Below are positions 49,819 through 51,496 of a stretch of DNA of 64,000 bases, piece by piece. The position numbers and the translations under genes were made by a program. How positions within the stretch are numbered: position 1 is the stretch's first letter; the number at the start of each line of letters is the position of its first letter. Source of the DNA: Pyrinomonadaceae bacterium (GTDB lineage: Bacteria > Acidobacteriota > Blastocatellia > Pyrinomonadales > Pyrinomonadaceae); contig JBAUGW010000063.1 in NCBI GenBank assembly GCA_049679945.1, forward strand, positions 272 through 64,271, written 5' to 3'. Under the pieces are notes generated by a model. It was not told the origin of the DNA and did no database searches. It worked only from the letters and a program-made list of their open reading frames with translations.

Positions 49819-50643
49819 ATGACGGGTGACGAAATCAGGGCAAAATTCCTCAGCTATTTTGAGAGCAAAGGCCACAAGGTCGTGCATTCATCGCCACTTT
49901 TGCCGGCAAACGACCCGACGCTCTTGTTTGTAAATGCGGGAATGAATCAGTTTAAGGATGTATTCTTAGGCCTCGAGAAACGCGACTATACGCGCGCCGT
50001 CTCCTCGCAAAAGTGTATCCGTGCCGGCGGCAAGCACAACGACCTCGACGAGGTCGGCAAAACCGCGCGTCATCATACTTTTTTCGAGATGCTCGGCAAC
50101 TTTTCGTTCGGCGATTATTTTAAGACAGAGGCGATCGGGTATGCGTGGGACCTGCTCGTGAATGAGTTCAAGCTCGATCCTCAGCGGCTGTGGTTTTCTG
50201 TATTCGAGGGCGACGATGAGGTCGGTCCTGACGATGAAGCGCGCGCGCTTTGGGAAAAAGTCGGTGCAAAACCCGAGCGCATTCTTGGCTTTGGCCGGAA
50301 AGATAATTTCTGGCAGATGGGCGACACTGGCCCGTGCGGGCCGTGCTCGGAGATTCACTATTACATGGGCGATGAGCCGAGCAACGCGGAAAAAAATTCA
50401 CCAGACTTTGTTAATGGTCCGGGCGACACGACGATGGAGATATGGAATCTTGTCTTTATGCAGTACAACCGCACGCAAGCGGACGACGGCACGTTTACCT
50501 TGACGCCGCTGCCCGCGCCGTCGGTCGATACGGGCATGGGCCTTGAGCGAATGGCCGCCGTCGTGCAGGGCGTTAAGACGAATTACGACACCGACATAAT
50601 TAGGCCGATCGTCGAGTTTGCTGCAAGTTTGGCAAAAGCGTGA
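49819..50643 (+). CDS. alaS: alanine--tRNA ligase, N-terminal 274 codons only (truncated copy or split gene)
   Basis: Near-consensus AlaRS catalytic core ([56 protein letters not shown]). It ends at a TGA where full-length enzymes continue for roughly 600 more residues. Confidence 0.85.
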
Positions 50644-50864
50644 CGAGCAATCGAACGGACATTCAATTCACCGACGTTGAACGCAACGTGTTAAGAATGA
50701 TCGTAGGCAATATGTCGGCGAGTGAGATCGCGTTCGCACTCGATGTCGAACAGTCCGCGGTCATTGAGACGAGTGAAAATATTTTTTGTAAATTAGGAGC
50801 GTCTGATGCTAAATCGGCAACCGAGATCGCCACGAAGCTTAACCTCGTAAAACTTGAACCATGA
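50640..50864 (+). CDS. small LuxR-type HTH protein
   Basis: 74 aa. [44 protein letters not shown] follows the LuxR C-terminal HTH pattern. The GTG overlaps the alaS-fragment stop (GTGA). Confidence 0.6.
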
Positions 50865-51496
50865 ACGAACTACAAACTGCGATGACCGACTATGCAGAGG
50901 CGCTTACATCCGGTGAGAGCGAGGTACTTCGCGAGCTTCGCGAACATTGCAATGCTCACTACGACGACAGGGCGATGTTGTCCGGTTTTTATCAAGGCCG
51001 AGTTTTGTCCATGCTCTCGCACATGATCAAACCCAAAGTCGTACTTGAGATCGGCACATATCTCGGCTATTCGGCACTCTGCCTTGCCGAAGGTTTAGCA
51101 GACGGCGGCAAGGTGATAACGCTCGATGTAAACGAGGCGACGAACCGAGTCGCGAGTCTCTTTGTCGAGCGAACCGATTACAAAGACAAGATCGATTTTC
51201 ACCTCGGAAGCGCGATCGACATCATCCCAACGCTGCCCGAGACTTTCGATCTCGTGTTCATCGACGCCGATAAACCTAATTATTCCAACTATTACAACCT
51301 TGTCTTCGACCGCGTCCGCCAAAGTGGTTTTATCGTCGCCGACAATGTGCTGTGGAGCGGCAAAGTACTCTTAGCCGCAAAAGATGAAGAGACACAGGCG
51401 CTCTACGATTACAGCAAGATGGTTATGGCGGATGAGAGAGTTGAGAATGTCCTGCTGCCCATCCGCGACGGATTAATGATCGCGAGAAAGAAATAA
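50861..51496 (+). CDS. class I SAM-dependent O-methyltransferase (caffeoyl-CoA OMT-like)
   Basis: VLEIGTYLGYSALCLA...DLVFIDADK...GFIVADNVLW motifs. The ATG overlaps the upstream stop (ATGA). Confidence 0.9.
   Translation: MNELQTAMTDYAEALTSGESEVLRELREHCNAHYDDRAMLSGFYQGRVLSMLSHMIKPKVVLEIGTYLGYSALCLAEGLADGGKVITLDVNEATNRVASLFVERTDYKDKIDFHLGSAIDIIPTLPETFDLVFIDADKPNYSNYYNLVFDRVRQSGFIVADNVLWSGKVLLAAKDEETQALYDYSKMVMADERVENVLLPIRDGLMIARKK

Follow-up and report, generated by a model that had tools for sequence, protein, structure and literature searches.

Introduction

Alanyl-tRNA synthetase (AlaRS) has been described as retaining its prototype architecture across biology, with the split enzyme of Nanoarchaeum equitans as the lone exception (PMC10036535). 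In that organism, an α subunit (NEQ547) and a β subunit (NEQ211) are encoded by unlinked genes, and both are required for full G3:U70-specific activity (PMC11392972; PMC10036535). Here, we analyzed a 64,000-nucleotide stretch of DNA (the window) from a Pyrinomonadaceae bacterium (contig JBAUGW010000063.1, assembly GCA_049679945.1). The open reading frame (ORF) at 49819–50643 probably encodes, as judged from comparative evidence, the catalytic subunit (alaS-α, hereafter α) of an AlaRS that this lineage makes from two genes. An earlier note on this DNA had left three explanations for the short ORF open, namely a recent stump of alaS, an assembly chimera, and a genuinely split AlaRS; the last is favored by the split loci of relatives and by complementary β genes.

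The likeness to N. equitans lies in the same enzyme being naturally encoded by two genes, but the cut is different. The N. equitans α corresponds to residues 1–368 of the Escherichia coli enzyme (PMC11392972), and its cut falls inside the tRNA-recognition domain. Here, the cut lies before that domain, which is wholly on β, and the window α ends about 100 residues earlier, at approximately residue 269–271 of the 441-residue AlaRS fragment 3hxu. At the level of sequence, the Pyrinomonadaceae split is independent of the N. equitans one. The host in that case is a reduced archaeal symbiont, whereas the bacterium here lives freely in soil and its genome is of normal size. Furthermore, unlike in N. 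equitans, fused, adjacent-split, remote-split, and re-fused forms coexist in one family.

Bacterial glycyl-tRNA synthetase (GlyRS; GlyQ/GlyS, α2β2) occurs naturally in both fused and split versions. In both its catalytic and its ATL domain it is more closely related to AlaRS than any other enzyme is, and it is normally α/β and fused in a few species (bioRxiv 10.1101/2023.05.29.542759). As in the arrangement considered here, the small α contains the class II core only, and the large β carries the ATL acceptor-stem domain common to AlaRS. The amino acid and the tRNA are different, and GlyRS β has HD, body-tail, and ABD domains and no editing domain. GlyRS is commonly split, and this is its ancient state, whereas in AlaRS the fused ‘prototype’ had been regarded as universal. 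Other natural departures from the AlaRS prototype are the AlaX editing proteins, the Tupanvirus mini-AlaRS, and the ‘small-AlaRS’ (PMC10036535; bioRxiv preprint). In these, domains have either disappeared or act independently as trans-editing factors; no member of this set consists of a free catalytic core devoid of a tRNA-recognition domain, nor does any depend on a second gene to restore the enzyme.

Among other essential synthetases, the Aquifex aeolicus LeuRS (α/β) and the crenarchaeal ThrRS (ThrRS-cat/ThrRS-ed) are made from two cooperating genes, and in the latter catalysis and editing are on different proteins. These are other enzymes with other cut points, and to our knowledge no mobile cargo has been described at their cuts. 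The nrdA gene of phage Aeh1 is split by the homing-endonuclease gene mobE; both halves are expressed and reassemble into an active enzyme. The likeness to that case is an essential enzyme gene cut by a selfish cassette. The differences are that the cargo at the AlaRS cut is toxin–antitoxin or IS200-like and not a homing endonuclease, that the host is cellular, and that the halves are at separate loci in one lineage. A split AlaRS appears to occur in soil Acidobacteria of the Pyrinomonadaceae group. Our full-text literature search, the coverage of which was incomplete and is no proof of novelty, returned the N. equitans split AlaRS only and no bacterial one.

A Catalytic Core without a tRNA-Recognition Domain

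The layout claimed in the earlier note, comprising the 274-codon ORF, a 74-codon ORF with a GTG start, and an O-methyltransferase (OMT) ORF, was reproduced exactly in its coordinates and in its GTGA and ATGA overlaps (Table 1). The 274-residue protein matched Pfam tRNA-synt_2c (PF01411) at profile positions 1–259 of 552 (E = 3e-115). It could be aligned end to end with residues 1–260 or 6–269 of crystallized bacterial AlaRS catalytic fragments, at approximately 60% identity. Class II motifs 1–3 and the active-site stretches, including RAGGKHNDL and EIWNLVFMQ, are preserved relative to the solved AlaRS structures. The identification as an AlaRS N-terminus with intact motifs was borne out in this way, and the protein is a class II AlaRS catalytic domain. 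It is not a complete alanine–tRNA ligase according to TIGR00344, the NCBIfam alaS equivalog, of which it spans positions 1–248 of 847 with 372 bits against a cutoff of 457. GenBank names the product ‘alanine--tRNA ligase-related protein’, because its score falls under this cutoff.

The window α terminates nine residues past the ‘...IVEF’ helix motif, within the linker that leads to the tRNA-recognition (ATL) domain. A Pfam scan of the large ORFs of the window revealed no other AlaRS domains (including tRNA_SAD and DHHA1), and tblastn searches of the window with four different AlaRS C-terminal queries returned noise alone at E ≤ 10. Both results agree with the earlier statement that the domains for tRNA recognition and for editing, along with C-Ala, are missing from this stretch. 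An AlphaFold2 model of α built with 32 close homologs had a mean pLDDT of 58, which was too low for use, and sequence alignment to solved structures was employed instead. By these alignments, α is a complete class II alanine-activating core and nothing more.

Conservation of the Short Form

The homology search yielded more than 120 protein clusters, of which the 120 best ones were assessed. All were 272–314 residues long at 81–100% identity, none was full length, and many sit on contigs of 50 kb to 4 Mb. At the DNA level, we found the same short gene at 12 independent loci (the window, L001, L003, L012–L019, and L047), contigs of 1.06, 1.46, and 4.15 Mb among them. Its length is 272–277 residues, with no frameshift or premature stop at any of the 12 loci. 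Every α gene, window-type ones included, terminates 3–12 residues past an ‘...EF(A/T)AxL’ helix. The dN/dS ratio of α was 0.05 (11 orthologs, with synonymous sites near saturation), equal to that of clpA, while OMT (0.09) and the fasciclin gene (0.10) were less tightly constrained.

The position of α in the chromosome is conserved as well. In most Pyrinomonadaceae and Blastocatellia, the usual order is truB (reverse strand), recX, alaS (a single ORF of about 900–945 codons), PG_binding (reverse strand), SLT, and bPH_2. The truB–recX pair precedes fused alaS, adjacent-split α, and window-type α alike, and the 12 loci have this synteny in common; in the window, the upstream flank consists of a class-IV aminotransferase (Aminotran_4), an alpha/beta-hydrolase, truB, and recX, as before the fused alaS of relatives. 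Since α is preceded by this ancestral neighborhood, it is the positional ortholog of alaS and no duplicate. The downstream order in window-type loci is α, NarL-type response regulator, OMT, pirin, (thr genes), and clpA, and the PG_binding–SLT block was found neither in the window nor in any window-type locus.

A 6.99-Mb record labeled ‘Leptolyngbya sp. 7M’ includes a window-type α (P0108, 82% identity) under the name of a hypothetical protein. Since a cyanobacterial origin is implausible, mislabelling or acidobacterial contamination is the probable cause. P0121, a candidate for an α with a 73-residue extension, was rejected: its contig is rich in indels, and the gene is a full-length alaS with a frameshift.

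Adjacent Halves in Relatives

Among relatives, the alaS locus was found in three states: fused; α and β with a small cargo between them; and α without β within 10 kb. At adjacent-split loci (which include L005–L011, L031, L039, L095–L099, L102, L103, L106, L108, L122, and L126), an α of 274–302 residues is followed after 0.3–1.1 kb, at the same locus, by a β of 625–690 residues. This β starts with ‘MSxY(D/E)x(L/F)DEQKKFACRVIADH’, the AlaRS position right after the end of α, and contains the remainder of tRNA-synt_2c together with tRNA_SAD and DHHA1. The existence of such α–spacer–β intermediates in many relatives indicates that AlaRS tolerates this cut.

The cargo of the spacer varies between PemK/MazF, BrnT, DUF6036-nucleotidyltransferase, and IS200-like ORFs. 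One cassette comprises a 75-residue ORF with a weak match to the RelN antitoxin model (E = 0.002) and a PemK/MazF toxin (32 bits); another, a DUF6036-type nucleotidyltransferase (28 bits) and a small ‘MKVDMSPEAVT’ ORF; a third, a BrnT toxin (77 bits) followed by a 95-residue ORF without family assignment; and a fourth, an IS200-like transposase (89 bits). The spacers of L098 (1080–2047) and L095 (205–833) are composite and partly degraded. They contain, in this order, a nucleotidyltransferase gene, a fusion of a small ORF with the C-terminal half of the AbrB-like antitoxin, and a broken MazF-like ORF, which suggests successive insertions and decay at one site.

Some single-ORF alaS genes carry linker inserts derived from this cargo (P0445; L107, 2561–2661; L120, 9907–10004; L139, 354–673). 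The insert of P0445, ‘...PIDMSSAAVTARL...’, echoes the small ORF of the cargo; in L107, L120, and L139, the frame continues through antitoxin-like sequence. Remnants such as ‘...DMSSAAVTARL...’ and ‘...EDWSTxEED...’ are recognizable in the linkers. These genes look like re-fusions of a once-split gene, and their scars suggest that the split is reversible.

Among the fused alaS genes recovered complete, the one closest to window-type α (80%) is L151 9176–12000, on the 1.68-Mb contig Ga0315906_10000001; the partial L152 is 81% identical. The L151 linker, ‘...DFAAGLAGLEYDSCSPQQQFALRV...’, resembles an α tail joined to a split-type β N-terminus, and this gene may represent a pre-split state or a scarless re-fusion.

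Stand-Alone β Genes as Candidate Partners

A metagenome scan seeded with the β N-terminal signature revealed approximately 40 loci with stand-alone β genes, including contigs of 121–599 kb. These proteins have 628–659 residues and start with ‘MS(V/A/T)YExL(S/T)E(T/S)QQFACRVIADH’. They retain HxxxH and CxxxH (editing), YDT(F/Y)G (tRNA recognition), and GGG(K/R) (C-Ala). No α-like sequence was found in the 3–10 kb upstream at any of the 15 stand-alone β loci that have such upstream sequence.

The β proteins cover TIGR00344 from position 260/264 to 847 (stand-alone β, 264–847, 501 bits). Together with α (1–248), they tile the whole alaS model except for about 15 linker positions. The β-only proteins L123 and P0372 scored 501–528 bits. 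Because β passes the alaS cutoff and α does not, automated annotation would name β ‘alanine--tRNA ligase’ and hide the split.

Trees were constructed by neighbor-joining on protein distances. In the N-terminal tree, window-type α forms a clade (178/200), which groups with the fused L151, L152, and L030 and the adjacent-split L122 at a modest 117/200. The C-terminal tree united the remote βs with L151, L030, L122, and L109 at 100/100, apart from other family members (98/100), and the 15 remote βs alone were monophyletic in 68/100. On these trees, the remote βs seem to occupy the mirror position to window-type α.

On the soil contigs L104, L105, and L174–L176, an msrP/msrQ/msrB/yggX-like block lies immediately upstream of the stand-alone β; the L104-type β was looked up on contigs no longer than 7.7 kb. 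This block corresponds to window positions 57224–60353 with 64–79% identity (tblastn) and with the same order and strands, and Pfam assigned its genes in L174 to Oxidored_molyb, Ni_hydr_CYTB, SelR, and Iron_traffic. In the window, it is situated 7–10 kb downstream of α. The mirrored trees and this synteny both link the stand-alone βs with window-type α.

Two other sets of proteins were considered as candidates. P0327 and P0314, AlaRS C-terminal proteins of approximately 550–600 residues, were set aside as partners, being distant and starting too late in the domain. P0387/L092 and P0371/L093 were rejected as a second ‘β locus’, as they represent the ancestral recX–alaS–PG_binding–SLT locus. In L092 (positions 1–700; GCA_009772075.1, WNFY01005436.1), the ancestral-locus alaS has a normal start, a frameshift, and about 40 missing residues. 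Its intact ORF begins only at ‘MQCVTSNYDTD...’, reflecting either an assembly error or a decaying alaS catalytic domain.

Weighing the Explanations

A recent 5′ stump, left to decay as a pseudogene remnant after a rearrangement or insertion, would have to reconcile several findings. These are the dN/dS of 0.05 across 11 orthologs with near-saturated synonymous sites, the intact catalytic motifs, and the common end point and maintained length of undisrupted ORFs at 12 loci, backed by more than 120 clusters. Nor are the orthologs copies of one contaminant, since they are 81–89% identical and lie in different contexts. The rearranged state of the locus, with the PG_binding–SLT block that follows the alaS of relatives gone and the neighboring regulator gene without its receiver domain, is what speaks for a stump; we consider it very improbable. 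That the window derives from a metagenome-assembled genome makes a mis-join near 50640 conceivable, but the α end and the regulator/OMT pair recur in assemblies that were made independently, in different projects and with different technologies, among them single contigs of 1–4 Mb, and the probability of a chimera is negligible. These two proposals of the earlier note are contradicted by the data. Joining of α and β after translation or transcription, through a split intein or trans-splicing, has nothing in its favor beyond the exact complementarity of the halves. The α proteins end 3–12 ordinary residues past the helix, β (‘MSxY...’) starts straight in AlaRS sequence, and Pfam found AlaRS domains alone. 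Split-intein joining is disfavored because neither half has room for the extra intein portions of approximately 100/35 residues, and we give such joining hardly any credence.

The main rival is that α is a neofunctionalized extra paralog, a free-standing alanine-activating enzyme that perhaps serves the regulator/OMT operon, beside a normal full-length alaS elsewhere. Catalytic-core-only paralogs with other functions exist for other synthetases (HisZ, EpmA/PoxA, GluQRS, and AsnA), and the α neighborhood with response regulator and OMT is conserved. However, α sits at the ancestral alaS position after truB–recX as a positional ortholog, and its breakpoint is identical to that of the α–cargo–β operons, where the halves are evidently complementary. 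The numerous β-only genes without a nearby α need a catalytic partner and have the mirror-image phylogenetic position. A functional partner would hardly be lacking, as the regulator is from L017, or decayed, as it is in the window. We regard this paralog as unlikely, although the main competitor. Among the matches listed in the genome scan, no second alaS-like locus came from the nine window-type assemblies; this speaks weakly against the paralog, yet it leaves room for a full-length alaS and so also belongs to a group of observations that count against a two-gene AlaRS. Comparison of NCBI accessions and locus-tag prefixes gave no α/β pair from one assembly, which is in the paralog's favor. 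The window block at 57224–60353 continues into other genes and no β (the contig ends at about 64.7 kb). The support of 117/200 for placing window-type α with the L151 lineage is modest. Finally, tRNA is not charged by the 368-residue N-terminal fragment of the E. coli enzyme, and the N. equitans α exceeds the window α by about 100 residues (PMC11392972).

Sequence comparison has shown the facts on which the two-gene AlaRS draws, namely which domains are present, conservation and purifying selection, positional orthology, the common breakpoint, the complementary β genes, and the mirrored phylogenies. We infer that the window genome has both α and β, that the two assemble, and that it has no full-length alaS besides. 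In the proposed mechanism, α would be the class II aminoacylation core that makes alanyl-adenylate, and a separate β of about 630–660 residues would supply the tRNA-recognition (ATL), editing, and C-Ala domains. For the window lineage, β would be encoded outside the 64-kb window. The two proteins would bind noncovalently via the native interdomain interface, to which α may contribute the first helix after motif 3 that it keeps, and would yield a complete, editing-competent AlaRS. The alaS of the family formerly resided between recX and the PG_binding–SLT block. In the window lineage, the spacer would have grown or undergone rearrangement to include the regulator, OMT, pirin, thr genes, clpA, and others, whereby the halves would have become separate loci.

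Possible Spread of the Split Allele

Split and intact forms are intermixed in both trees, and monophyly was rejected for either (0/100). Despite the intermixing, a derived junction signature is common to all split forms. The split L005 and the intact P0446 are 95–100% identical over the first ~260 and the last ~440 residues, and only 45–80% identical from the junction through about 200 residues of β. Between L005 and L097, DNA identity is 92.8% in the cargo, 82.4% in α, and 75.8% in β. Because identity among L005, P0446, and L097 is mosaic, it is suggestive, from few pairs, of recombinational transfer of the split junction and its cargo between lineages.

We tentatively propose that the split allele (junction and cargo) spreads among Pyrinomonadaceae by homologous recombination, and either reverts by in-frame re-fusion that leaves linker scars from the cargo or expands to unlinked genes as in the window. 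We hold this scenario to be a serious possibility, somewhat short of probable. If it is true, the fused/split polymorphism of AlaRS would be kept partly by cargo whose imprecise loss would kill the host.

A widespread bacterial split cut exactly between the catalytic core and ATL would, if true, constitute a natural experiment. It would bear on whether separate polypeptides can serve as the AlaRS active site and as the G3:U70-reading module, on the coupling of editing to synthesis across two proteins, and on how the GlyQ/GlyS-type α/β layout arose from or gave rise to fused enzymes. Since fused, adjacent-split, remote-split, and re-fused forms coexist in close relatives, matched proteins for biochemical comparison are ready-made. 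Such splits also escape routine annotation and completeness checks.

Neighboring Genes and the Upstream Element

Table 1. Window features, with coordinates as window positions
Feature	Coordinates	Strand	Description
truB	43812–44711	−	Pfam TruB_N/TruB_C_2; ancestral upstream flank of alaS
recX	44756–45301	+	Pfam RecX_HTH1-3; ancestral upstream flank of alaS
Fasciclin gene	48316–48882	+	Pfam Fasciclin; between recX and α
msrB	49010–49612	+	Pfam SelR; between recX and α
msrB–α intergenic palindromic element	49613–49818	+	MFE (minimum free energy) −95.7 kcal/mol, z −8.0
alaS-α	49819–50643	+	274 aa (amino acids); stand-alone AlaRS catalytic (aminoacylation) core; Pfam, TIGR00344, PDB alignment
LuxR/GerE-type HTH ORF	50640–50864	+	74 aa; GTG start; GTGA overlap with the TGA stop of α
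Class I SAM-dependent O-methyltransferase (caffeoyl-CoA-OMT-like)	50861–51496	+	211 aa; PF01596 (Methyltransf_3); ATGA overlap with the 74-aa ORF
ClpA-like AAA+ unfoldase	51532–53802	+	Pfam Clp_N, AAA, AAA_lid_9, AAA_2, ClpB_D2-small
msrP-like	57224–58084	−	Homolog upstream of L104-type β
msrQ-like	58081–58800	−	Homolog upstream of L104-type β
Thioredoxin-MsrB	58878–59975	+	Homolog upstream of L104-type β
yggX-like	60033–60353	−	Homolog upstream of L104-type β

The 74-residue ORF matched Pfam GerE/LuxR (PF00196) marginally, with 24.6 bits against a cutoff of 23.5. It aligned to residues 142–205 of the 206-residue regulator of L001, which is intact and matches NarL-type models. The full 206-residue NarL-type response regulator (REC+GerE) lies beside α in nine relatives. 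The window ORF is no NarL/FixJ response regulator, as it lacks the REC domain. Its identity to the intact regulators is 44%, compared with 83% among the nine, and the NTVKTH motif of the recognition helix is changed to SAVIETS. We read it as a decaying remnant of a NarL-type response regulator minus its receiver domain. The 211-residue ORF matched the family-3 OMT profile over positions 5–204 of 204 (E = 2e-48, 164.7 bits), and no specific NCBIfam equivalog was matched. OMT is conserved downstream of α in all window-type loci (L001, L003, and L012–L019) with 65–78% identity.

The earlier note had described α, the LuxR-type gene, and OMT as translationally coupled. The overlaps are real in the window, but the coupling does not hold in general. 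Between α and the regulator, an overlap occurs in the window and L018, a few nucleotides separate the genes in L014 and L015, and the spacing is 43 to approximately 380 nucleotides in L001, L003, L012, L016, and L019; in L017, the regulator is absent. A four-nucleotide ATGA-type overlap between regulator and OMT was established for the window, L001, and L003 alone. The best reading of the regulator–OMT pair is that of a first cargo inserted between the alaS halves, without a functional partnership with the synthetase.

The placement of the fasciclin gene and msrB is conserved in L001, L003, L012, L014–L016, and L019. Between recX and fasciclin, the window contains at 45389–48172 a 181-residue ORF without a Pfam match and a 732-residue SPFH/Band-7 protein; in other window-type loci (L001, L003, L012, and others), recX directly adjoins fasciclin. 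The clpA-like gene starts 35 nucleotides past the end of OMT in the window, while in window-type relatives it is 3–9 kb further from α, behind pirin and the thr genes. Genes for the repair of oxidative damage surround α, with msrB upstream and the msrP-like, msrQ-like, thioredoxin-MsrB fusion, and yggX-like genes downstream.

The intergenic region between msrB and α can fold into an outer stem of about 20 base pairs around three hairpins. It had no Rfam match and no conservation upstream of α in relatives, and its arms of about 40 nucleotides reappear at unrelated sites in L128 (8058–8102) and L001 (1543–1584). For these reasons, a regulatory RNA leader was rejected, and the element was read as a palindromic repeat (REP/MITE-like). 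In most window-type loci (L012, L013, L014, L016, L017, and L018), the sequence ‘tgtgctaaagttttt(n)tATG’ is found immediately 5′ of the α start; the equivalent stretch of the window (49795–49818) differs in sequence. The tgtgctaaagttttt stretch occupies about 20 nucleotides before the start and has a −10-like TAAAGT box approximately 7 nucleotides from the ATG and no obvious Shine–Dalgarno sequence. In the relatives with this TAAAGT box, the α mRNA may be leaderless or unusually initiated.

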